Part shown: positions 2,329 through 21,411 of the stretch, one piece after another
How positions within the stretch are numbered: the first letter of the stretch is position 1
Layout of the letters: every line of letters begins with the position of its first letter
From: a virus
Lineage: Duplodnaviria > Caudoviricetes
Virus record (IMG/VR): IMGVR_UViG_3300044300_000526
Coordinates: 1-35,480 of that record
Strand: one strand, 5' to 3'
Length of the DNA stretch: 35,480 bases
The notes under the pieces: generated by a model
What the model was told of the DNA's origin: nothing
The model's database searches: none
What the model saw: the letters and a program-made list of their open reading frames with translations, nothing else
Translations under genes and position numbers: made by a program

Positions 2329-2903
2329 TAGAAGTCTTCATCCTCTTCTGTGTCTTCAGCAGCTACAGGGTTAGGTGCGGATACCTTGAATCCTTTCGTG
2401 GCTCCGAACAATGCTGTAGCTTCATCTGGGGTCATATCCCCGTCATCAACAACACCAGCTCCAGTATTTAAACTGATAACTTGTACTGCCTTTAATTTTA
2501 ATGATGTACCAATATCACCTGCTGGTAGCACGTATGGCTTTTGGAAGAAAGCTATCTTGACCATCGTACCGCTATATATAGGGGTAGTCTCGTCAGTTAT
2601 TGCAGTACCTTCCGTGTCAACGACAACAGGTACATACTTGTCTCCATCTTTCCAACTGAATCGTACTTGATAAAATCCTGGCTTGCTATCTATTTCTTCC
2701 CAAGGCTCAGGTTTTACTGTAACTCTTTTAGGGTTCTTTGCCTTGCTTCTAGCCCATTCAAGAGCACTTTCACGCTCTTCCTCTAGGTCTTTCACAATAC
2801 TCTCTGGTAAGACAGCAGCTAATTTATAGCCCCACTCCCCAGGTTTTAGAACGGCTTGGAACCCATCGAGTAATACAGGTTCTTTAGTGACATAAGTAGT
2901 CAT
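2328..2903 (-). CDS. Single-stranded DNA-binding protein (T7 gp2.5-like)
   Basis: Acidic C-terminal tail ending in Phe (EDTEEDEDF), GTSLKLKAVQVI strand, position after RNAP. Start taken at MTTYV. Confidence 0.9.
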   Translation of the reverse strand: MTTYVTKEPVLLDGFQAVLKPGEWGYKLAAVLPESIVKDLEEERESALEWARSKAKNPKRVTVKPEPWEEIDSKPGFYQVRFSWKDGDKYVPVVVDTEGTAITDETTPIYSGTMVKIAFFQKPYVLPAGDIGTSLKLKAVQVISLNTGAGVVDDGDMTPDEATALFGATKGFKVSAPNPVAAEDTEEDEDF

Positions 2904-2908
2904 GGTGT

Positions 2909-5281
2909 TTAACAAAAAAAGTAAGTGGAATTAGTGACAACATTAGGATCTAATGTGCCTACTATTGGCGGTGGCTCTGAGGCATTAATGGTGTTTCCAA
3001 AACGTGTAAGCCAGCAATCTCTCGTGAAGATATCGGTGTAGGTTTCTCGCACAAGTGAGTTGAGTGTTCCCATGTCTCCTGCTCTACAAAGAACTGAGTC
3101 ATGGATGACTGTGAATGGTCCATTAAACTTTTGAAAAGAACTGTGCAGTATGGAGGCATCCAAGGAGTGTATGAAATTAGGAGCAGTACTAGACCGATGT
3201 TTTCTAGGACAAGGGGTTTCAACAACCTTACCGTCCTCATCTGTCTTAGGTATGTTAACCCTGACTCTACCTAATAACTGTAGTTCCATCTGAACTGTTT
3301 CAATATGGTTCCGTACTTGGTTGATAACAAAACCCGTTGGGCTTTCCCATTCAACTTCAGTACCACCATTCTTGATGTATTCTCCTACATGTTTCTTAAT
3401 CCAACGCATGACACGCATAGGACCAGGAACTATAGCATCCATACTTTTATAGACAGCATTGACAACCTCAGTTAACTCATCAGGTTCAGGGTCAATACCC
3501 TTCTCCTTCAAAGCTTCCCTAATGTACTTCCGAGATGAGTCTTTAGTAGCATTGTAAGGTATAGTCATAACCGTTCTTTTGACGGTTTTTCTGTCCATCC
3601 AAGATTGCATCCGTTGAGGCAGATACTTCTTGGCTTCTATGGCAACAGCTTTATATGCATCACTAGGTCTATCTGAAGGACACACGTTAACAAGATCAGC
3701 TGTACTAGCATCTTTAGCTAGACCAGCGAGGATCTGGAGTCCTGAACACGTAGCATCTACAGCTACCATTAGACCTGTGGTATTCTTATCACACTCTATG
3801 CAACAATGGTAGTATTCGTGACATGCAGCCATGAACTGCCAAGGCTCTTCTACACCTTCCCAATCAGGAAGATTACCTATCGGATCTTTAGCGACCCTTG
3901 TGATTAAGTCTCTGTTATTATCTACCCATTGCACCCTCTCGATGATGGTGGCTTTATCTAACCCAAAAGTAGTAGCTACTTGAAAGGCTAACCACGTTGA
4001 TACTGTACCTCCATCTCCATCTACAGGCTGTTCATCAGCGAAGCGAATACACGCCTTACCAAAGTCTGTATCTTGAGGAGTTAAGAAAGCAGGTATAGGA
4101 TATGCTCTTCCTCTATAATCAAAAGACCAGCATAAATAATAGACCTCATCTCTAAACTTTCTAGCAGCTTCCATCTGTGTTCTGGTTCTAACTGATCTCT
4201 TAAAGTTAATTCGATCAGCATTATATCCTTCTGCCATCAACCTTCTCCATGCCAGATTTTTCTCTGTATCCTCATCGGCATCAGGAGGTCTTGGCGGTTT
4301 AAAAGAGGGGGATATAGGAATAAATTTCCCTACTATCTTTCCTGTTCTTTCAAACTCTTCAGCTACACCCAGAACATGAGTGTTCACACGGTATTTAACC
4401 TTCTGTAGCTTGTTTAAAAAAGCTATCGGAAGTTCTCCGTGTATAATAAGGGGGTTGCTCTTCCTAGTAAGATCATGGCCCTTCATAAGTCTGTTGACAA
4501 CATACCCACCGTAAACAATCTTACCGTCTTTATAACCCCAGTCATTAGGTTCTATCAACATAGGCCACGGGATACCACTGAACATCTCAGCTGTTTTGAT
4601 AAGTTCTTCCCTCTTTTCATTGAAGGCTTTTGTAGGTACCACCCTTGACTTCTTACGTTTACGGTGATTAATTGTAGTATTTATTTCAAACCAACCAGTT
4701 GTTTTCATAACAGCTAACAAACCAAACTTGCCTAAAACAATACGAGTCTTTAAACTCCATTTGTCCCATCGAATGTCACGTTCACCAAACTTCTGACTAG
4801 CTATACTTTCCTTTTGAACAGTACCACAAGCCTCATGGAAATAGGTGTCTTCGATGTATTTCATTAACCCAGGATGTTCAGATTTATACCATCTAAACTT
4901 ACACTCAGCTTCTAATGCTTGGCCTATCTTAGTGATAACATTAAGTACATAGTCTTCACGTTCACGAGTGCTGAATACCTGATCGAATGTAACCTTCAAT
5001 ACTATTGATGCAATAGCTATTGATTCTAATTCAGTTAAGTATTTAGCTACGGGTTGGTAATACTTACCAGCTTGACCATTGGTTAGCTTCCAGAACTCCT
5101 TGTCTATGTAATCCATGAGCAATGGGAGTGCAGCCGTTATTGACGGTACTCCGTACACGCTTGCCGAACTGTAAGACTTGCTCTCCAACTTCTCTATCGA
5201 ATCTCTCAGCTTCTGTTTCCCACAAGAGATCGCCTCCTGTTCCAATAGAAATTGTTGGTTGATCTGTGAGGGTGTCGCCAT
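2909..5281 (-). CDS. Single-subunit phage DNA-directed RNA polymerase (T7 gp1-like)
   Basis: FDYRGRAY, DATCSGLQ (motif A), RKTVKRTVMTIPY (motif B), PNFIHSLDA and IHDS (motif C), ending YFFC. Confidence 0.98.
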   Translation of the reverse strand: MATPSQINQQFLLEQEAISCGKQKLRDSIEKLESKSYSSASVYGVPSITAALPLLMDYIDKEFWKLTNGQAGKYYQPVAKYLTELESIAIASIVLKVTFDQVFSTREREDYVLNVITKIGQALEAECKFRWYKSEHPGLMKYIEDTYFHEACGTVQKESIASQKFGERDIRWDKWSLKTRIVLGKFGLLAVMKTTGWFEINTTINHRKRKKSRVVPTKAFNEKREELIKTAEMFSGIPWPMLIEPNDWGYKDGKIVYGGYVVNRLMKGHDLTRKSNPLIIHGELPIAFLNKLQKVKYRVNTHVLGVAEEFERTGKIVGKFIPISPSFKPPRPPDADEDTEKNLAWRRLMAEGYNADRINFKRSVRTRTQMEAARKFRDEVYYLCWSFDYRGRAYPIPAFLTPQDTDFGKACIRFADEQPVDGDGGTVSTWLAFQVATTFGLDKATIIERVQWVDNNRDLITRVAKDPIGNLPDWEGVEEPWQFMAACHEYYHCCIECDKNTTGLMVAVDATCSGLQILAGLAKDASTADLVNVCPSDRPSDAYKAVAIEAKKYLPQRMQSWMDRKTVKRTVMTIPYNATKDSSRKYIREALKEKGIDPEPDELTEVVNAVYKSMDAIVPGPMRVMRWIKKHVGEYIKNGGTEVEWESPTGFVINQVRNHIETVQMELQLLGRVRVNIPKTDEDGKVVETPCPRKHRSSTAPNFIHSLDASILHSSFQKFNGPFTVIHDSVLCRAGDMGTLNSLVRETYTDIFTRDCWLTRFGNTINASEPPPIVGTLDPNVVTNSTYFFC

Positions 5282-5622: not shown

Positions 5623-5914
5623 CCTCGGGTAGTGTGTCCTGTAGTTCATCATAGGTCATTAATGTGAAGTCCTCCTTATTTTTAAGTAAGGATAACATAT
5701 ACCTATGAGCGTGTCCAAATTGTTTGTATGCCCGTTCCCTGATAGTACCATCCTTTAGGTACCCTCGGACAATAGCTACATGTGATTCTGGTAAGTTCCA
5801 GTTATCAGCAGCCCCTAAGCACATTTCGCTATCAAATTGTGTGAGTTCATCCGTGGCTTTCCATCGGTTAACTTCACTTATTCTGTTGGGAAATGGGTCG
5901 TATCGTCTAGCCAT
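5609..5914 (-). CDS. Hypothetical early protein
   Basis: 101-aa ORF, tightly packed and co-oriented with the early operon. Confidence 0.75.
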   Translation of the reverse strand: MARRYDPFPNRISEVNRWKATDELTQFDSEMCLGAADNWNLPESHVAIVRGYLKDGTIRERAYKQFGHAHRYMLSLLKNKEDFTLMTYDELQDTLPEDAFD

Positions 5915-8187: not shown

Positions 8188-8355
8188 TTAGTCATAGTCG
8201 GAGATGTTCCAATGTCCCATTGGGAGTCGGACATCCTTGTATTGTCTGTCATGTAAATCAGTGAGAACGGCTAGTACGGCTGGATCCTGGAGGGCAGCCC
8301 TGTTGGTCATAACACACCCATCAAGGATAGGCATGAATGTTAGTTGCTTAAACAT
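8188..8355 (-). CDS. Small hypothetical early protein (55 aa)
   Basis: Start MFKQLTF preceded by GAGGA, overlapping the end of the upstream gene. Confidence 0.6.
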   Translation of the reverse strand: MFKQLTFMPILDGCVMTNRAALQDPAVLAVLTDLHDRQYKDVRLPMGHWNISDYD

Positions 8356-8971
8356 TGTGTATCCTCTTGTAAGTAACCCATGTGATAGCTTGGATCTGGG
8401 CTGCAAGGTAGTTCTCGCCTAGCTCCTCATTAATGAAGGCTGTGGCGTCCCTGTAGTCCTGTTTGATCCGTTGCCTTAATCGTTTACCTATGGCTGGTAC
8501 GTCCTTGAGTGCAAGGCGTATCCCCATAAAGATACAGTAGGCATGACCGTCGATGCAAACATCGTTGATCTCAGGTTGAGTGATGCAGTTGAAGAACTCA
8601 GTAACCTTAGGGCCATTGAGTATGTTGACGATAGGCTCGCCAGTATCCTGTATAATGCGTACTGCTTTCTCTTTATTAAGAGGAGGAGTAGAACATTTCA
8701 CATTGACTGCATCCTCAGCTGTCCCATGATTCCATGCCTTGAGCATAGTCTCGGCATTAAGAACATTACGACTCCACTCGTTAAGTGGGCTGAGAGCAGC
8801 GATAACACCCGCAGCTTGGTCAGTGCTTACATTGAAGCGTTTACCTAGCTTGTAGGCGATCTGATGTGCCTCAGGATACCAATTACAGCCATTCTCTACC
8901 TCAAGCGTTGTAGCCTGAGTGAACATGGCCACCACATTGCGAGCCTCCGCTGATAGTTGAGCGTAACTCAT
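8348..8971 (-). CDS. First early gene; phage protein with HhH-GPD/endonuclease III-like motifs
   Basis: AALSP...W..N, GPKV, VCIDGHA and QAITW motifs parallel the G.K, VDTH and Q..W motifs of HhH glycosylases; function is inferred. Confidence 0.75.
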   Translation of the reverse strand: MSYAQLSAEARNVVAMFTQATTLEVENGCNWYPEAHQIAYKLGKRFNVSTDQAAGVIAALSPLNEWSRNVLNAETMLKAWNHGTAEDAVNVKCSTPPLNKEKAVRIIQDTGEPIVNILNGPKVTEFFNCITQPEINDVCIDGHAYCIFMGIRLALKDVPAIGKRLRQRIKQDYRDATAFINEELGENYLAAQIQAITWVTYKRIHNV

Positions 8972-9076
8972 AATAATTAGTGGAAAGCGTTCACCTGTGA
9001 TGATGGTGGATTGTGGAGTGTTCAGGAATTACACCCGAATGAATAGCCTAGCCACTCCAAGAAATAGCTCATATGT

Positions 9077-9106
9077 ATTACACACTTTCACTTAGTCTTA
9101 AGTCAA
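9077..9106 (-). promoter_or_regulatory. Candidate host sigma70-type early promoter
   Basis: TTGACT (9101-9106), 18 nt, then TGTAAT; about 100 nt upstream of the first early gene. The -10 element is imperfect. Confidence 0.4.
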
Positions 9107-9124
9107 GGGTCGGTTGGCCGACAT

Positions 9125-9138
9125 AGTACATATGAACT
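9125..9138. promoter_or_regulatory. Solitary LexA-box-like palindrome upstream of the early promoter
   Basis: AGTACATATGAACT, one mismatch from AGTACWNWTGTACT, within the extended palindrome atagtacatatgaactat. Confidence 0.55.
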
Positions 9139-9397
9139 ATAGTAATTAATAGTTCACTTATTAGTTAACGCATTGACGGCAGAGACAATACGTACTCCCA
9201 CTATATCCCTGGCTCAAGCTGGCCCCACAAGGCCGACACTGTGGCTAGGTAACGCTTGCGATGGCCAGTGACGTTAGAGTATAAATACTCAGATTGTCCG
9301 TTTAACTCACTCGGTTTCAAGCTGTTCTCTACTTACAAGGTAGAGTCCTATAGTTTGATTGTGTTTGGTTTAATCCTCTTTTGTTTTGTATGTACTT

Positions 9398-9427
9398 ACA
9401 ATATCAAATGATTAGAATGTAAGTCAA
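9398..9427 (-). promoter_or_regulatory. Candidate host sigma70-type early promoter
   Basis: TTGACT (9422-9427), 18 nt, then an extended TGn-TATTGT (9398-9403). Confidence 0.55.
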
Positions 9428-9544
9428 CAAATGTTAGAGAATCAAGATAATTAGTTTTTAACCTCGTTGTGTGTTTGTTACTCCTTAATTATATAAGGTG
9501 TAGGTGATAGGGCTATGAGTAGAAATACTCAGCTGTTGTATTTG

Positions 9545-9558
9545 GTATCATTTGATAC
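9545..9558. promoter_or_regulatory. NtcA-box-like palindrome
   Basis: GTATCATTTGATAC = GTA-N8-TAC with internal symmetry. Confidence 0.5.
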
Positions 9559-9612
9559 TTTCAGGGGCTTTCAGTGTTTAGAGTAGGTATAATTACTCAC
9601 GCCCCTGATGAT

Positions 9613-9637
9613 GGTGGCCAAGCCCACCTTTTTTTTT
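9613..9637 (+). terminator. Candidate intrinsic terminator on the antisense (+) strand
   Basis: GGTGG-ccaagc-CCACC followed by nine T. Confidence 0.4.
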
Positions 9638-9656
9638 ATTAAGTATAAATACCTAT

Positions 9657-9774
9657 AGTACATTTGTATTATAGTACATTTGTATTATAGTACATTTATA
9701 CTATAGTACATTTGTATTGTAGTACATTTATACTATCGCTAATACATTTGTACTATTACTAATACATTTGTACT
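9657..9774. repeat. Tandem array B: seven LexA-box-like palindromes (periods 16,16,16,16,20,20 bp)
   Basis: 14-mers at 9657, 9673, 9689, 9705, 9721, 9741 and 9761, each one mismatch from AGTACATTTGTACT. Confidence 0.9.
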
Positions 9775-9934
9775 AATCTAAGTATTAATACCTATTTGTT
9801 ACATAATTTAATTTAAAATAACTTATACCTGTTATAGCAAAAACTAATCAATAAGCAAGTCACTAGGTATAAATACTTGTGAGATTCAACACAACAGATG
9901 TCAATAGGTATTTCTACCTACGTCTCCCCAAGAG

Positions 9935-10109
9935 GTAGTAGTACATCCGTATCACTACCTCGAAGTAGTAGTACATATGTATTAGCACCTCCCAGGGAGT
10001 AGTACTGGTGTACTACTACGCCATGATAGTGGTACAAATGTACTACTACCCCCGAGTGGTAGTTCAAATGTACCACTACCCCCCAGTAGTAGTACAAATG
10101 TACTATCGC
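9935..10109. repeat. Tandem array A: six ~30-bp units, each a ~24-bp palindrome (GTAGT-AGTACAAATGTACT-ACTAC) with a LexA-box-like core
   Basis: Cores at 9940, 9970, 10001, 10031, 10061 and 10091, separated by short C-rich linkers. Confidence 0.9.
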
Positions 10110-10185
10110 CTGTATCATTGGGCACCACGGGGGGTAACAAATGTCTGGGGCGTAGAGAATACACTTCAGAAAATTATGTTAAAAT

Positions 10186-10398
10186 TTAAGACCCCGTAAG
10201 ATACTTATTAATCAGGCTAATATTCTCTTCATACTTGGAGGCATCGTGTAATTCAGCTTCGATAGCTTCTAGGACACCTGGGTGCTCTCCGATACCTGCG
10301 GGGTTATTTAGGTAAACTTCTATGTTAGCTAAGTGCTTTTGAAGTTCCCCGTGGTTGTGAGCTAATAAGGCTTTGAGGATTTTCTCTCTCATTAACAT
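10186..10398 (-). CDS. Cyanophage-type hypothetical protein, last late gene
   Basis: 70-aa helical ORF with NIEVYLNNPAGIGEH, a motif recalled from cyanophage hypothetical proteins. Confidence 0.75.
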   Translation of the reverse strand: MLMREKILKALLAHNHGELQKHLANIEVYLNNPAGIGEHPGVLEAIEAELHDASKYEENISLINKYLTGS

Positions 10399-10512
10399 TG
10401 TTCTTTATATATAGGTATATAATACCTCCTACTGGACCTATTATCCTTAATAGTAGTAAGAGTAATAATAGTTTACGGATCATGGCTCACTTCGTTCGCA
10501 GACATGATAGAT

Positions 10513-10559
10513 AAAGGGGGGAAGAAGAGAAAGAATGTTGTCTTATTCTTCTTCCCTTT
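10513..10559 (-). other. Long hairpin downstream of terminase (terminator or RNase III-type site)
   Basis: GGGAAGAAGA...TCTTCTTCCC inverted repeat; a second hairpin lies at about 10575-10600. Confidence 0.45.
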
Positions 10560-10617
10560 GACCGCTGTTTCCACACACGAAGAGCACCACTTCTCCGTGT
10601 ATTATAAGGGGGTTCCT

Positions 10618-12372
10618 CTAAATCCAAGTAGGGACACCGTTTTTAGCATCTGAACCTCTAGCTTGTTGTCTTTGTTTTAGGTCCATTCCTAGAGCTAAAT
10701 AATTAGCTTCTGATTGAGGATCATCCATCCAAGCTTGAAGGTGGTCTATCCATTCTTGTTTTTCTCTATCTACCTTTACTTGATCAGCACTGATGGAGAG
10801 GGCATCTGTAAACCACTTGACCCCTTGGGCAAGGGCATCGACTCTGTCATCGTGCTTAACGGCCCCTTTTTCCCTGCACATCCTGGAGATTTGGTATCCA
10901 AGCATATATTGGAATCTAGTTTCAGTTGGTCTTTCAGAACTCGATTCATAATCCCATTTAATAACCTTGGGGTCAATAACCAACCTATGCTGATTAAAGA
11001 CAGGCTCAAGGCTGTCAATAATACGATCTTCTTTCCTGACATTAGCTCTTGTTTCCTCTATGTTAATTGGTACATTTTTATTAATGGCATGTTTTCTAAA
11101 TAGTTCGGATACCATGCCGTCACCGAAGTTAGATTCAATTAAAAGTGTTGAAACTTTATACTTTTTACACCTAGCAAGAATAGCAAGTAATGTACTATCG
11201 CTATATCCGTCCTGAGAGGCGTAGATTTCATGTAAATACATAATCCCATTCAACTGGGAAATAAAGCACGCTACAGTCTCATCTGTACCCCTTCCAGAGG
11301 GGTCTACGCTGCAGATAGTCTCACTATATGGTTTCCATTCACCTTGAACCTGCATAGGGCTATAATAATAGTCACCTGGAAGCCCCACACAAGGTAACTC
11401 TTTAACTATGTTGTCTTTACTTGAACACCAGATGATGTTTTCAGGTGCTGTTTCGGGGTTAACTGGATTAATGATGAGATCGGAAAATTTGAGAGGAAAC
11501 TTCTCCGCATCAGATAAAGAAGTGTCCAGCATAAACTGTAACATAAAGTTGCTACGACCCATAGCAGATTCACGTTCCAGCAGATCGTCCTCCTTAAATC
11601 TTGTATCCGTTGGATTCCAAGTGAGATCTGTTTCATTTTCTAAGTCTTGTTCTAGTTGTGGTGCGAGTAAACCATCATACATAGCCACCTTTCGAGGGTA
11701 TCTAGCTGGCCATACAAAAGGTTTATAAGCTCGTTCTCTGAGTTTATTATAGACGGTAAAAGTAGTTTGAGGAGTTCCAAGGAACATGATACGAGAATCA
11801 GGTTTAGGAGTAAGAATAGACTCACACTCAGTAACCAGTTGAAGTAGTTTTTCACGTTGTAGTTCGGTCATACTATTGTTTGGCACCTCTACATCGTCTA
11901 AAACCATCAAATCTGCACGAGATCCAGTTAACTGCCCCGTAATACCGACTGATTTAACGCTAGGTGCTTGGTGAGGTGCAGCAGTACCCACATCAAAAGA
12001 CACTCTAGACCATCTCTGGTCATCATTCTTTGGTCTTAGATGGGACATCCAAGGTACCTCAAGGATTAATCTTTGACAGAAGATCGAAAATGAGTCAGCT
12101 CTATCCTTAGAAGCCGAAACAACCATGATTTTCTTGTTTGCATCGTTATATAACGTCCAAAGAACAAAAGCCGCAGTAATCCAAGATTTACCAACACCTC
12201 TAAAGGCTTGAATTTGGAGTCTCTTTGGTCCATGTTGTAAATACTCTGCTATACAAAGCTGTGCCCTGGTAGGAGGTGGTAACGCTAAATGCGTCCAGAT
12301 AGCCGTTAGGAATAAACGGAAGTCTTTCTGTAATTGCTCCTCTAAGGGTGCTTGTTTTTTCTTTCTAGGCAT
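10618..12372 (-). CDS. Terminase large subunit (T7 gp19-like)
   Basis: AFRGVGKS Walker A, VLDDVE Walker B, GTPQ, VDPSGRGTDET and HDDRVDALA nuclease motifs. Confidence 0.97.
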   Translation of the reverse strand: MPRKKKQAPLEEQLQKDFRLFLTAIWTHLALPPPTRAQLCIAEYLQHGPKRLQIQAFRGVGKSWITAAFVLWTLYNDANKKIMVVSASKDRADSFSIFCQRLILEVPWMSHLRPKNDDQRWSRVSFDVGTAAPHQAPSVKSVGITGQLTGSRADLMVLDDVEVPNNSMTELQREKLLQLVTECESILTPKPDSRIMFLGTPQTTFTVYNKLRERAYKPFVWPARYPRKVAMYDGLLAPQLEQDLENETDLTWNPTDTRFKEDDLLERESAMGRSNFMLQFMLDTSLSDAEKFPLKFSDLIINPVNPETAPENIIWCSSKDNIVKELPCVGLPGDYYYSPMQVQGEWKPYSETICSVDPSGRGTDETVACFISQLNGIMYLHEIYASQDGYSDSTLLAILARCKKYKVSTLLIESNFGDGMVSELFRKHAINKNVPINIEETRANVRKEDRIIDSLEPVFNQHRLVIDPKVIKWDYESSSERPTETRFQYMLGYQISRMCREKGAVKHDDRVDALAQGVKWFTDALSISADQVKVDREKQEWIDHLQAWMDDPQSEANYLALGMDLKQRQQARGSDAKNGVPTWI

Positions 12373-15790: not shown

Positions 15791-17299
15791 CTATACTAAA
15801 TATGTTGCCCACCATAAATTTGATGCACCATTACCCATAACAGTACCTGTAACTGTTGCTACGCCTGTATTTTCTTGTTTATAATAGTGAATGGTGGAAC
15901 TATTTGGCCAGATAATTGGGAAAGGATTATCTATTGTTGATGCTGAAATATTGTTATAACCTGCCATTGCAACGTACATACTATTATTTGCTGATGTAAA
16001 AGGTAATCCACCGAATACAACCGTAGCACCTGTTGGAGTACCTCCATTTAGATTCAAATAAAAATATATACTTACTTTATTACCAACTTTTGTATAGTAA
16101 CCGTATTGATTAGACGTGTAAGTAGGAGACGTGATACCTGCTGTAACTATAGGAGTCCAAGTGCCTTCTTCATAGTCGTCCAGAGCATTCGCCGCTGCTG
16201 AATCAGTTCCAAACTTTAAGCCGTCTGAGTCAAACCTTACTCGTGGACTATTGCTAGTATAAATCTTGAAATTATCATCAGAGTGGTGATATACCAACTG
16301 ACCCGTAAGGGTACTAGCATCATCACCAAAATAAATCCCTCCATCAGTGTTACTTGCACTAATAATAGATATACCGCTTCTTGTTCCGTTGGTTGAGTTA
16401 CCTATGACCAGATCATCACCACCCGTAAAAGCTGTTCCTGTTGAAGCTGACGTGTTTATACTAGCTTTAATGGAGACAAGATTCCTCCAAGCATTACCTA
16501 CACTTCCTATGTCATAAGTATTATTTGTCCAAGGTAGAAAATGACCGTCAGTAGCATGAAAGTATGCTCTATTTGTACTGTCATCCCTAAATATTAATGC
16601 TCCGTTTACGAAATTGAGATAATTATGCGTTCCATCATGGTAGATCTGGAGATCTGACCCATTTCCGATTTGTATCTTGCCGTTGTCTTCTAACCAAAGA
16701 TCTTCATTATTATCAATATATATGTAACTAGTAGTATTTAAACTTCCAGTCACCTTTGCTCCACTACTCGTCGTCTCAAACTTCTTAACACCTGAATATC
16801 TTAAATCAGTTGCCGCATCAGGAACTATTTGAATTGCTGTTTGATCTGTCTTACCGCAAATATATAAGACATTATTTTTACTGGTTATGTAATTAGCACT
16901 TTCAGCATGTACATGGGAAATTGTAAGATCTTGCCCATTTCCAAATCGAGCTTCACCGCCGTCAAACAACATTAAATGACAAGCATTATTTGATAAACCT
17001 ATATCAACTCCGCTTGCGTTGGTATGGACTTTTGATACTCCATCGTAATACAGAGTTGTTGAGCCATTAATATTTGCATTGATTAGATATTCACCAGTAT
17101 CTTTATCGTCATTTCTTACTTGAAACGAACTATTAGTAACAAGCTTTAAAGCACCTGTTCCAGTTTCTTCAATAATTGAGTGAGATCCATCATGAAAAAT
17201 TTCTAAATCATTATCTGTTGTACCGAACCGTATCTTCTCATTATCCAAGAGGTCGATTGGAGTCTTCAAACCTCTGTCATCTATTTTTGTTAATGCCAT
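15791..17299 (-). CDS. Second tail fibre / receptor-binding protein
   Basis: DLxIxHDG repeats shared with the long fibre; C-terminal LDDYEEGTWTP...YTKVGNKV...GLPFTS module. Confidence 0.85.
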   Translation of the reverse strand: MALTKIDDRGLKTPIDLLDNEKIRFGTTDNDLEIFHDGSHSIIEETGTGALKLVTNSSFQVRNDDKDTGEYLINANINGSTTLYYDGVSKVHTNASGVDIGLSNNACHLMLFDGGEARFGNGQDLTISHVHAESANYITSKNNVLYICGKTDQTAIQIVPDAATDLRYSGVKKFETTSSGAKVTGSLNTTSYIYIDNNEDLWLEDNGKIQIGNGSDLQIYHDGTHNYLNFVNGALIFRDDSTNRAYFHATDGHFLPWTNNTYDIGSVGNAWRNLVSIKASINTSASTGTAFTGGDDLVIGNSTNGTRSGISIISASNTDGGIYFGDDASTLTGQLVYHHSDDNFKIYTSNSPRVRFDSDGLKFGTDSAAANALDDYEEGTWTPIVTAGITSPTYTSNQYGYYTKVGNKVSIYFYLNLNGGTPTGATVVFGGLPFTSANNSMYVAMAGYNNISASTIDNPFPIIWPNSSTIHYYKQENTGVATVTGTVMGNGASNLWWATYLV

Positions 17300-17301
17300 A
17301 G

Positions 17302-20300
17302 TTATTTAGCCTCCAATGCAGCTACTTTTGTTTCTAGTGTTTCGACTTTTGTAATCAATTCTTGTAATGCTTTAATGCTTATCATCATCATTTGCTCTTC
17401 TTTTACACCTTTTCTAAGAACGTCATTCCCATCATCATCAACTCTTACTTTAAACTCTTCACTGACTAATTCAGGGTTTACAGTTTCTATTTCTTGAGCA
17501 ATGACTCCAACTTTTAACGGTTCAGAATCTTGTTGAAAATTGTATCTAAAGTTTCTTAGTTTCCAAGCCTTTACAGTTGCTAGTTGAGAAGGTGCATCGG
17601 TAATAGATTTCTTTTCTCGTTCATCACATAAATTAGCATCATTAGATGAATAATTAGATATACCACCATTTGCAGTTACATAAAATCTATAACCTTGGTG
17701 TGAAGAATGCAGATTATAAAGATGGTAAGTACTATGGTTTCCAGTAGTTGTATCTATGACATTTGAGACCCAAGGTATAACAGCACTTGACGAGTTGATT
17801 TTAAAACCAGTTCCAGCAGTAGCAGTGGTATTAGTTGTACCGAAAGCAGCTTTACCGTCATGAGTTATTTGGAATTTCGTTGTTCCATCATTTTGAACCC
17901 TAAGTAGTTCTCCTGTGGTTTGTGCTTCGACATTTATTCTTAAACCTGACGAATTATTAGTAGCGTCAACTGTAAGGACGGGGCCACCGTCAGTTATTTT
18001 TATACCTTGACTTGTCGTCTCAAGCTTCTTACTGTGGTCGTATGCTAGTTCAACTCTGTCATTACCATAAGCTTTTATAGCATCTTCACCATCTAATGGT
18101 TGTATTAAAATAGTACTTCCACCACCATTTCTTATGTAGAGGTTACCAGTACTATTTGCGAGGTATGAATTGCTTCCATCATGGAAGATCTTGAGATCAT
18201 CTGAAGCACCCATCACGATCTGAGAAGAATCGTGAGGCATATCTAAATTACCACCGTCTCCTATATGTAATCCATCAGCATGGGTTTCGCACTTTTTAAC
18301 GCCGTCGTAATATAGTTCTACTGAGCCGTTTTGTACGAATTTTGCTATATCTTCATTACCCGCTGCGTTTCTTATAAAAAGATGACTGCTATGAGTTTTT
18401 AAAACATTTGTGGCATTTGATATGATTGAATCCGTTCCATCATGGTAGATCTTGAAATCATTACTATTACCAAGTTGAATTTGGTGATTATCTAAACCAT
18501 ATAAATTCCCTGTAAATATACAGCCACCACTATGAGTCTCAAACTTCTTAACGCCGTCGTAAAAGAGTTGTACGTCTCCATTCTCATTTGTTGCTATTTG
18601 TTGTTCATTACCAGCAGCGTTTTGAAGTCTAAACTCATTTGTATGTATATGTAGTTGTCCAGTACCAGCATCTTTTATGTATGAATCTGATCCATCATGG
18701 TAGATCTGGAGATCATCCCCTGTTCCGAGTTTAATCCTTTCATTATCTTCCATATCAATCGCTCCAGATGCTCTGAAGTCACCCCAACAAACAACACCTG
18801 AACTCGTTGTCTCAAACTTCTTTACGTTGTCGTAAAAAAGTTCTACTGAGCCGTTTTGGTAGGCAACTATTAACTCTTCATTACTAGCAGCATTATTGAC
18901 TGATAATTTACTAGTAGCCAATACTAATGCACCAGTGCCTGTGTCTTTTATATACGAGTTAGATCCATCATGATATAGCTCTAAATCATTCCCTGTCCCG
19001 AACCTAATCTTCTTATTATCTGCTAGATCTAAGTTAGTAGCTATCTTATCTCCAGTAACAGCTAAGTTCTGTAAAGTAGCTGTACTTACTGTATTATTTC
19101 CTGGAGTACCAATATTTACCGCTGCTCCAATAGTGATAATAAAGTAATCACTACTAGCAGGAGGGGCGGTAGAAAAGATAATAGAGCTACCGTCGATAGC
19201 AAATCCTTCGGATGGCTGGCTGGTTCCGCTATTAGGTTTCTGAACGACTCCATTGATAGAAACAAGATGTTGCTCTGCATAAGTACCAGCATTTGACAAT
19301 ACAAATCTATAAGCTGTTCCATTGAATGTTGCACTATTACCTCCTGTACCTGAGTAACTAGATATTGTATTAATAAAGTAGTTACCTACAGACTGTACAT
19401 CGTCCCATGAAGTATCACTAGCGTTATAGACCAACATCTTATTAGATGAAGTATTGAAGAATAAATCTCCATCGTCTAAACTAGAAGTAGGGTTAGAAGA
19501 ACCAACTCTATATCTTTGATTAAAATCAGATACTAAGGTTTGTGCAGCTGCAACTCCAGCTTCATCTACTATAAGTCTATGGTAATCATAAGTATTTAAG
19601 GTGCTAGTAGTTTGTACTAACATCCCTTTACCAGCAGCTATAGTAGTGTTGTAAAGAGTAGAGTCAATACCATTGATTGTTACTGTTGCACCACCTAATG
19701 TCCTACCAGTTGTACTAACACCAGAACCATTAACAACAATACCACCTGCATCTGCAATAGATACAATAGTACCAGCGTTATTTCCTGGATCAGGGTTAGT
19801 ATTAGGGAATGAAACTTCATTAGCTACAGGTACAAATCCACCTACATCAGATATTGTATTAACTATTTGATCGTTAACGGCTTTTGCAGTCGGTAACTGT
19901 ACGTCAGTAGAACTACCGCTAATTGCTGTGACAATGCTCTTGCCATCCAACAGGTTAAGTTCAGCATTAGTCGAGGTAAGAGCCGTACTACTTGCAAGAT
20001 TAGATGCAGTACCTGACTGCATACCAGCAAGCGTTGTGAGTTCAGCATCAGCTATCTCCGTAGTTGTAACAGCATTAGCTGCTATATGCTCAGTACCAAC
20101 AGCATTGTCTGCAAGTTTAGTACCATCTATAGCATCAGCTGCTATTTTACCTGTAGTAACCTGTAAATTGCCTATATGAGCTGTATCAATAGACCCATCT
20201 GTATAATGTTCAGAATCAATGGCGTTATCAGCTATTTTAGAACCATTCACAGCATCTGTTGCTATCTCACTGGTACCAACAGAGTTAGCTACAAGGTTAT

Positions 20301-21411
20301 CAGCGTTAACAGTTATATCTGTAGGTAATGCACCACTACCAAGTTTAGCTAGTGTAACATTATTATCTAAGATATTAGCTGTTTCAACAGCATTATCAGC
20401 TAGTTTAGCTGTATTAATCTGGTTATCACCTATATGAATAGTATCAATACTACCATCTACATAGTGTTCAGAGTTAATAGAGTTATCAGCAATCTTATCT
20501 CCGTTAACGGCATCTGCTGCCAGCTTAACAGTAGTGACTGCCCCGTTAGCCAAGCCATTTGTACCAATAGCTCCTGCTGCTAACTTAGCATCAGTGACTG
20601 AATCATCTGCTAAATGTACTGTATCTATAGATCCATCTACATAATGCTCTGAATTTATAGAATTATCTGCTATCTTATCTCCATTTATTGCATCACCTGC
20701 TATCTCAGAGGCACCTATGGTACCACTAGATGCAGATGTTACTCTACCTTGAGCATCAACTGTGATATCTGCTGCTGTATAACTACCTGCACTAACAGAA
20801 GTATGTGCAAGTTTATCTGCTGTAACTGCATTATCTTGTATCTTATCTGTAGTAACAGAGTTTGATGCTAAATCTGCAGCAACAATAGTACCATCTACAA
20901 TATCAGCACTTGTGATAAATGAGGAATCTTTAGCTGCATCTCCAAATAGTTTACCTTCTATCTCAAAAACTTTATTCCTAGCTTCTTGTGCTGTATAATT
21001 AGACTCTGTAGCAGATCTGTTCAGGTCTGTGTGCCTAACTGTACTACCACCTGCAAAGGTAGTGTAATCCCCAGAACCATCTCTAGTTCTACGCTCTACT
21101 GTAACTATAGCTCCACTAGGTAAGTTACTATTAAATGTAATAGTATCATTAGCAGTAGTTAATTGATAGTTATATAAAGTTGTACCTGCTGACACTGCAG
21201 GGAAATACAATCCATCTGTATTATTTACCTGTGGGTGGCTAGATTGTGCAGTACTACCAGTAGACTGGCGTAACTGTAGTACTCTAGTACCACCTGACAA
21301 AGTAACATATACATCTAGATCATCTAAGTTATTTAATTCTATCCCATGCCCGCTAAAAGCAGCTGTGCTACCGTTAGCGGCTGAGAATGTATGTTTAGTT
21401 TTAACTGCCAT
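17302..21411 (-). CDS. Long tail fibre (T7 gp17-like N-terminus) with C-terminal S74-type intramolecular chaperone
   Basis: gp17-like N-terminus (DLDVYV, VERRT, DLN), low-complexity shaft repeats (KIADNSINSEHYVDGSIDT), DLxIYHDG repeats, and a C-terminal DEREKK...GVIAQE...coiled coil. Confidence 0.92.
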   Translation of the reverse strand: MAVKTKHTFSAANGSTAAFSGHGIELNNLDDLDVYVTLSGGTRVLQLRQSTGSTAQSSHPQVNNTDGLYFPAVSAGTTLYNYQLTTANDTITFNSNLPSGAIVTVERRTRDGSGDYTTFAGGSTVRHTDLNRSATESNYTAQEARNKVFEIEGKLFGDAAKDSSFITSADIVDGTIVAADLASNSVTTDKIQDNAVTADKLAHTSVSAGSYTAADITVDAQGRVTSASSGTIGASEIAGDAINGDKIADNSINSEHYVDGSIDTVHLADDSVTDAKLAAGAIGTNGLANGAVTTVKLAADAVNGDKIADNSINSEHYVDGSIDTIHIGDNQINTAKLADNAVETANILDNNVTLAKLGSGALPTDITVNADNLVANSVGTSEIATDAVNGSKIADNAIDSEHYTDGSIDTAHIGNLQVTTGKIAADAIDGTKLADNAVGTEHIAANAVTTTEIADAELTTLAGMQSGTASNLASSTALTSTNAELNLLDGKSIVTAISGSSTDVQLPTAKAVNDQIVNTISDVGGFVPVANEVSFPNTNPDPGNNAGTIVSIADAGGIVVNGSGVSTTGRTLGGATVTINGIDSTLYNTTIAAGKGMLVQTTSTLNTYDYHRLIVDEAGVAAAQTLVSDFNQRYRVGSSNPTSSLDDGDLFFNTSSNKMLVYNASDTSWDDVQSVGNYFINTISSYSGTGGNSATFNGTAYRFVLSNAGTYAEQHLVSINGVVQKPNSGTSQPSEGFAIDGSSIIFSTAPPASSDYFIITIGAAVNIGTPGNNTVSTATLQNLAVTGDKIATNLDLADNKKIRFGTGNDLELYHDGSNSYIKDTGTGALVLATSKLSVNNAASNEELIVAYQNGSVELFYDNVKKFETTSSGVVCWGDFRASGAIDMEDNERIKLGTGDDLQIYHDGSDSYIKDAGTGQLHIHTNEFRLQNAAGNEQQIATNENGDVQLFYDGVKKFETHSGGCIFTGNLYGLDNHQIQLGNSNDFKIYHDGTDSIISNATNVLKTHSSHLFIRNAAGNEDIAKFVQNGSVELYYDGVKKCETHADGLHIGDGGNLDMPHDSSQIVMGASDDLKIFHDGSNSYLANSTGNLYIRNGGGSTILIQPLDGEDAIKAYGNDRVELAYDHSKKLETTSQGIKITDGGPVLTVDATNNSSGLRINVEAQTTGELLRVQNDGTTKFQITHDGKAAFGTTNTTATAGTGFKINSSSAVIPWVSNVIDTTTGNHSTYHLYNLHSSHQGYRFYVTANGGISNYSSNDANLCDEREKKSITDAPSQLATVKAWKLRNFRYNFQQDSEPLKVGVIAQEIETVNPELVSEEFKVRVDDDGNDVLRKGVKEEQMMMISIKALQELITKVETLETKVAALEAK

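Follow-up and report, generated by a model that had tools for sequence, protein, structure and literature searches.

Thirteen palindromes that match the LexA boxes of cyanobacterial SOS promoters stand in two arrays in the non-coding terminal DNA of a T7-like phage, beside its predicted left end. The arrays sit in the junction that runs from the terminase to the first early gene (Table 1). Our preferred reading, tentative and held at somewhat less than even confidence, is that occupancy itself is the selected trait, with host proteins forming a coat or fence on the leading end of the DNA in what would be a protective role. T7-like cyanophages are thought to follow a fixed lytic programme without host repressors; in this wild lineage, strong LexA sites within 1.2 kb match in number those of a 1.6-Mb Prochlorococcus chromosome, and LexA sites have been swapped for another host motif over short evolutionary distances. 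The arrays thus offer a handle on how a naked phage DNA end survives before phage proteins are present, and on ways in which phages of the ocean could detect stress in their hosts.

The window, the whole stretch of 35,480 nucleotides analysed here, belongs to an uncultured ocean virus that infects Prochlorococcus-type cyanobacteria. It is a T7-like cyanophage with a terminase 89% identical to that of Prochlorococcus phage P-SSP10, and the completeness of the record is ~79%. The minus strand encodes nearly all of its genes, among them those for the terminase, capsid, tail, SSB, primase/helicase and an RNA polymerase of T7 type. Positions 15791–21411 are occupied by two long genes for tail fibres, both internally repetitive. 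Homologues of psbA, 86–89% identical to that of P-SSP7, are present in two complete array-bearing relatives (G004 and G008). The original prediction had recognised no integrase, which was borne out in three complete relatives (G004, G007 and G008); a tyrosine integrase is absent from these and from G000, and was found in six array-bearing records outside the T7-like group.

Table 1. Features of the terminal region, with supporting contigs and loci
Feature	Position	Strand	Remarks
First early gene	8348..8971	-	phrog_3842, DUF7178
Structured RNA, early leader	9045..9352	-	Covariation
M2	9276-9291		Within one hairpin of the structured RNA
M2, two copies	9516-9531 and 9584-9599 (entry 9516..9599)		Early-promoter region
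Octamer GATRGTGG	9610..9617 (also 10025-10032, 9002-9009)	+	Directly inside array B
Terminator-like hairpin and T run	9613..9638	+	Faces the genome end and stops just short of array B; consensus match only
M2	9640..9655		Flanks array B, inner side
Array B	9657..9774		Seven LexA boxes, five end to end at 16 bp; 14-mer starts 9657, 9673, 9689, 9705, 9721, 9741, 9761 (steps 16, 16, 16, 16, 20, 20)
M2	9779..9794		Flanks array B, end side
M2	9864..9879		Over the -10/start region of a weak promoter candidate with TTGACA at 9899-9904
M2	9905..9920		Abuts the TTGACA -35 hexamer at 9899-9904 on the minus strand
Array A	9940..10104		Six LexA-box palindromes, spacing 30-31 bp; host-matrix scores 13.2-22.6 bits; 14-mer starts 9940, 9970, 10001, 10031, 10061, 10091 (steps 30, 31, 30, 30, 30)
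Pre-terminal element TAAATTTT(GG/AA)CATAATTTT	10170-10188 (entry 10158..10188)	-	Predicted left-end first base ~10158
Terminase large subunit	10618..12372	-	phrog_38; last large gene before the right end
Independent contigs over the arrays	X7 9598-10408; X8 9659-10198; X9 9658-10800		0 differences
Host M2 loci			L285, L287, L289, L290, L294, L295, L297
Two-box long-tailed group			L189, L207, L217, L219, L234, L238, L246, L247, L252, L257

Two palindrome arrays beside a predicted genome end

Every 14-mer of the original prediction, which had described 13 palindromes in two arrays, was found at its place and spacing. The copy at 10091 is a perfect AGTACAAATGTACT; 11 of the 13 lie within one mismatch of AGTACANNTGTACT, and the poorest, at 9940, has three. 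Between 9000 and 10200 are 12 sites with at most one mismatch to AGTACANNTGTACT; 300 dinucleotide shuffles gave 0.02 such sites on average and never more than 1. Contigs of three other sequencing runs span the arrays (at most the first 1–2 bases missing) with no differences, so the arrays are not an assembly artefact. Contig depth, tried as a measure of the terminal repeat, was discarded: only some of the runs show a rise over the arrays, and contig depth cannot rank parts of a sequence. Searches of the palindromes against Rfam returned only sub-threshold matches to microRNA hairpins. Across phages, exactly 16 bp is the dominant box spacing (88 of 243), in agreement with the end-to-end packing proposed earlier, but the helical phasing proposed with it is a moderate tendency of longer spacings towards multiples of ~10 (R 0.24, from related loci that are not independent).

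The genome end was placed by homology. The terminal repeat of P-SSP7, mapped at 206 bp (PMC3350473, excerpt), begins 30 nt past the element TAAATTTT(GG/AA)CATAATTTT; by homology with this mapped end, the left end in the window would lie at ~10158. Counted inwards from there, array A covers +54 to +218, and array B covers +384 to +501, upstream of the early-promoter region. Relatives keep two clusters, A at +35 to ~+225 and B at ~+310 to +535, with variation in box number and spacing. Array A probably lies largely within the direct terminal repeat, and would therefore be present at both ends. Of the earlier claim that the arrays mark the genome ends, a nearby left end is predicted from homology to the P-SSP7 end. 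Of 80 array loci only 33 have a terminase gene within 3 kb, and G014 has its array ~9 kb from that gene, so that for most unrelated carriers an end position is at best presumptive.

The pre-terminal element follows the terminase in 42 of 51 loci, with arrays present or not (one match, in L039, looks spurious). At the genome-end junction of T7-like cyanophages, an AT-rich element is followed by a C-run and a G-run (10170–10188 in the window; 42/51 terminase loci), and this conserved element is a candidate terminase cut signal. The non-coding stretch after the terminase (10427–10604) is 73% identical to that of P-SSP10-group phages, whose end regions are without arrays.

Repeats at such a junction might instead serve packaging or replication, bound by terminase or forming cruciforms, with the likeness to LexA boxes arising by chance. 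T7 has short repeats beside its terminal repeats, and both the location of the arrays at the genome-end junction and the extended inverted flanks of the array A units would suit this role. The T7 repeats are, however, non-palindromic heptamers without a known host binder, whereas those of the window are palindromes of 14–16 bp, correspond to a host operator and have a scattered distribution in related phages. Packaging repeats of the T7 type would be expected to be conserved with the terminase and the end signal. The arrays are not: on a terminase tree of 51 rows they occur in 11 and the end element in 42, with at least five gains or losses of the array label. The candidate end signal is moreover a separate element found in phages with or without arrays, the motif occurs in phages with unrelated terminases, and its sequence matches host SOS promoters. 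We regard packaging repeats as very improbable.

Match to host SOS promoters

The LexA box of cyanobacteria and Prochlorococcus is given as AGTACWNWTGTACT and TAGTACA-N2-TGTACTA in excerpts of PMC3091678 and PMC2921402. In three Prochlorococcus genomes the same motif precedes recA, umuD and lexA, with the best upstream match placed 35–167 bp ahead of the recA, lexA and umuD-like matches. A host devoid of lexA had been named as counting against LexA binding; a lexA gene with the Ala-Gly, Ser and Lys cleavage motifs is present in all three genomes, which stand for the host group.

Scoring with a matrix from host recA, lexA and umuD promoters, as had been proposed, sets the array sites apart from the rest of the phage, with the qualification that the nine host sites in the matrix were chosen with the same pattern, which makes it partly circular. 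Phage sites score 13.2–22.6 bits and host sites 11.4–23.2 bits (leave-one-out), and the 15 highest-scoring positions of the window are the 13 array sites together with 9125 and 9066, two box-like sites that the original prediction had overlooked. At a threshold of 14 bits, the 1.2 kb from 9001 to 10200 contains 13 sites and the remainder of the phage none. The half-site variants AGTACA and AATACA are common to phage and host, and across 82 dereplicated cluster loci (340 sites) information is limited to the box and does not extend into the spacers. The looser pattern RGTACNNNDGTWCB is fitted by the copies at 10001, 10031 and 10091, as originally reported, but is weak by itself because two sites within genes (21278 and 30822) match it too.

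A search of 34 virus records revealed no gene of the LexA family, and neither HTH_3 nor, in a search run without a positive control, a P-SSP7-type regulator was found in five genomes. Together with the match to host SOS promoters and the occurrence of arrays in unrelated phages, this upholds the view that the sites are cyanobacterial LexA boxes, and sequence comparison makes host LexA very probably their binder. Other regulators were considered. An NtcA reading (GTA-N8-TAC) is at odds with the N6 and N4 spacings; the best match to the RpaB HLR1 motif in the end region of the window has no fewer than three mismatches; and the window contains no Fur-like box.

Such a density of sites could act as a decoy, whereby replicating genomes would titrate LexA and so lift the repression of host recA and umuDC, in favour of recombination-dependent replication. 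The phage genome has 13 strong sites compared with 11 in the 1.6 Mb of the Prochlorococcus chromosome G002 (both at 14 bits or more), and at 18 bits or more the counts are nine and four. A decoy needs no fixed position, yet the clusters hold their distance from the end, and the LexA array is exchangeable for a different palindrome. Titration as the purpose of the arrays is improbable.

A second palindrome, early promoters and a structured RNA

Interspersed with the LexA boxes, and likewise overlooked earlier, are seven copies of a second palindrome, M2 (TRRGTATWWATACYYA), between 9276 and 9920 (shuffle maximum 1), four of them within 500 bases inside the predicted left end. M2 and the LexA box replace one another between close relatives. 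L006 and L007 share the flanks of cluster B and have terminase DNA that is 97.6% identical, but L006 contains tandem M2 where L007 contains tandem LexA boxes; L008 has ten M2 sites and no LexA box at one mismatch or fewer. A strict scan for triple M2 found nothing, and a looser one found nine stretches.

M2 also appears to be a host motif. On the G002 chromosome, 8 of 11 good M2 matches are intergenic, compared with two of seven for a control matrix, and a perfect copy precedes a DoxX gene in three Prochlorococcus genomes. The form TAAGTATWWATACTTA and close variants lie upstream of Prochlorococcus genes for DoxX/photolyase-like, alternative oxidase, DUF1330 and DUF6761 proteins, pointing to an unnamed regulon that is possibly a light or redox regulon. 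The neighbouring host genes (DoxX, photolyase-like, alternative oxidase, DUF1330 and DUF6761) yielded no regulator as the M2 binder, on which the supplementary motif table of bioRxiv 10.64898/2026.04.15.718746 may bear.

Sites for two host regulators near the end could form a stress gate, with LexA and the M2 regulator damping the first host-polymerase promoter, and with it transcription-driven DNA entry, until DNA damage or light stress released the regulators; occlusion, roadblock or looping would be the means, and different phages would be tuned to different host signals. In 16 of 94 cases a TTGACA-like hexamer directly adjoins M2, and several relatives have such a unit 74–254 bp inside the end; L026, L043 and L062 have LexA boxes ~76 bp upstream and at +1 to +15, with one at or near a predicted start site. 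In the window, array B lies 95–200 bp downstream of the candidate promoter, the -10 of which is poor. Arrays are missing from all 17 cultured T7-like cyanophages, as a gate might predict, but S-CRES3 is a cultured isolate despite its array. Precedents, as excerpted, are GIL01 (PMC4551915) and the rapidly turning-over CtrA sites of phage terminal repeats (PMC9437464). The main early promoters, with 11–12 of 12 consensus matches, lie beyond +500 (at +500 to +750 in several relatives), further in than the last box, with 47 bp or more to the closest one, and would escape the block. Only one of 18 sigma-70 promoter matches at 15 loci overlaps a box in this consensus scan, so that the arrays largely lack the overlap with a controlled promoter that defines a GIL01-type switch. 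For a silent state, no integrase was found in the array-bearing T7-like relatives G004, G007 and G008. The two boxes nearest the first gene, furthermore, belong to an RNA. A stress gate is possible but rather unlikely.

This structured RNA of ~300 nt occurs also in L003, L005, L006, L007, L016, L026, L049, L062 and L233. Compensatory change supports 31 of 51 predicted pairs among eight aligned sequences, a value reached in none of 500 shuffles; the RNA has UUCG-type loops, and 9045–9352 matches no Rfam family above cut-off. The box-like sites 9125–9138 and 9066–9079 are the two arms of one of its helices, which is kept with unrelated sequence and without the motif in 4 of 10 folded sequences. 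They were consequently rejected as operators of the first gene, being helix arms that four relatives retain with other sequence. One hairpin of the RNA is swapped for an M2 or LexA palindrome in some phages.

The arrays are therefore unlikely to be classic SOS operators, as 1 of 18 promoter matches overlaps a box, two sites form RNA arms and the slot tolerates another motif. The SOS-specific switch or sponge that the original prediction put forward finds no support as a principal role, given this low overlap and the different host-type motifs held by near-identical relatives.

The octamer GATRGTGG (Table 1) is found after the terminase 51 times in one orientation and never in the other (60 loci, 2.5 kb), and in many cases immediately inside cluster B. 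A single base separates it from E. coli Chi; a reading as Chi was provisionally rejected, as the octamer is not over-represented (z ~0, Markov orders 3–4) and shows no clear skew in the 1.6 Mb of G002.

Carriers of the arrays and possible roles of bound repressors

Two adjacent boxes occur in 98 viral stretches, compared with two for a reversed control pattern, and 32 of the 98 match window proteins (18 have only 300-bp flanks). Tandem LexA boxes of the gammaproteobacterial type were found in just two stretches of viral contigs, which under this stricter pattern gives no hint of comparable arrays. Among the carriers are tape-measure, long-tailed phages (G014, G019, G027 and G034), of which G019 shares no matching protein with either the window or P-SSP7; its integrase gave no clue to the host, and no cultured isolate matching two long-tailed groups was found. 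Near many arrays lies TGAGAATNATTCTCA, which we take to be Fur-like. The proposed search of other cyanopodovirus termini had a divided outcome: none of 17 cultured T7-like cyanophages has an array (15 have no box and two have one), but at least three boxes occur in 10 of 58 terminase relatives, counting those with at least 950 downstream bases, with 22 of 80 loci left out as too short and some negatives possibly missing the end.

The only array carrier among 20 cultured cyanophages is the Synechococcus phage S-CRES3 (L304, OQ587941.1), with four boxes. Its arrays, at 2860–3060 and 5680–5800, bracket a ~3-kb block of small genes. Three LexA boxes are followed by M2-TTGAC-CATACT promoters repeated along the small genes, with six M2 copies along these early-type genes marking the repeated early promoters, and then, after the block, by a second cluster of LexA and Fur-like sites that lies between the 3′ ends of convergent genes. 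The block is closed by a homologue of the first early gene of the window (phrog_3842, DUF7178).

This arrangement recalls the injection stop of T5, and bound host proteins might likewise halt or anchor the DNA once a first segment has entered. T5-like phages have eight DnaA boxes at the stop region, with proposed binding of host DnaA, as excerpted from bioRxiv 10.1101/866236, and in these phages, as in the window, the terminal DNA that enters first includes a non-coding array of sites for a host protein. The T5 array, however, lies ~9–10 kb in, after the pre-early genes and in strictly conserved order (bioRxiv 10.1101/866236, in the same excerpt), whereas the array studied here starts no more than ~55 bp from the predicted end, is variable in both number and motif, and has no DnaA box (TTWTNCACA in 8901–10700). 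Ordered DnaA boxes after pre-early genes, the mark of a T5 injection stop, are thus not found here. With no gene between the end of the window's genome and array B, the first step would deliver nothing, and the T5 model is itself a proposal. An entry pause is quite improbable.

The possibility raised earlier that the sites shield the ends fits the anatomy best, as read from sequence. Occupancy is favoured because a dense block is kept at a fixed distance from the end while its motif is exchangeable. Host repressor dimers would load side by side on the DNA that enters the cell first, forming a coat or fence that would shield and anchor the end before any phage protein exists. Array A, if within the terminal repeat, would cover both ends; array B would add a further block on the way from the end to the early promoters. 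Such a fence could act against RecBCD, a RecC-like protein being encoded in all three Prochlorococcus genomes (E 1e-61 or better, under the family cut-off; PMC5101192, excerpt), against back-sliding or against stray transcription. Sensitivity to SOS, and the titration of LexA as genomes replicate, would follow as side effects.

Several observations weigh against such a coat. Between the predicted end and the first box are at least 35–54 bp, enough for a nuclease to load, and the RecBCD enzyme of E. coli displaces proteins bound to DNA. The arrays are dispensable for the T7-like type, because 15 of the 17 cultured phages have no box and two have one. Regulatory features are present, namely the M2-TTGACA units, the S-CRES3 promoters and the boxes of L026, L043 and L062. 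The closest tested precedent, CtrA sites in terminal repeats, acts on transcription (PMC9437464, excerpt).

Host-factor sites in phage terminal repeats, LexA-run phage promoters and the DnaA-box array of T5 are known kinds of element. LexA-operated phage promoters are reportedly present in CTXphi and coliphage 186. As at P1 of GIL01, host LexA boxes lie on phage DNA without a phage LexA; the GIL01 type has few operators at a defined promoter of a temperate phage (PMC4551915, excerpt), whereas the window has 13 boxes with little promoter overlap, and its complete relatives have no integrase. CtrA sites cluster in the direct terminal repeats or gap regions of Alphaproteobacteria phages, and, as here, are in terminal or non-coding DNA, have independent origins in phages that are not related and change rapidly between relatives (PMC9437464, excerpt). 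They have been shown to regulate promoters, whereas the window would combine LexA with a second factor in exchangeable sites that are end to end and mostly off core promoters. New here are the marine T7-like case, its placement against a mapped end, the M2 motif and the exchange of LexA boxes for M2; a literature search, mostly of open-access text without supplements, found no report of LexA arrays in cyanophages.

More broadly, though we consider it doubtful, unrelated uncultured cyanophages may use interchangeable arrays for host repressors (LexA, Fur-like and the unnamed Prochlorococcus regulator) as a borrowed terminal-protein coat. Repressors leaving under UV, iron or light stress would tie the onset of infection to the host's daily cycle of stress, a possible reason for the absence of such T7-like phages from culture. 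The question is open to experiment, as the cultured S-CRES3 has the same kind of array and a method for engineering cyanophages exists (PMC8776855, as excerpted).

In one group of long-tailed phages, two LexA boxes ~40 bp apart are located 150–450 bp upstream of the terminase large subunit gene (Table 1).
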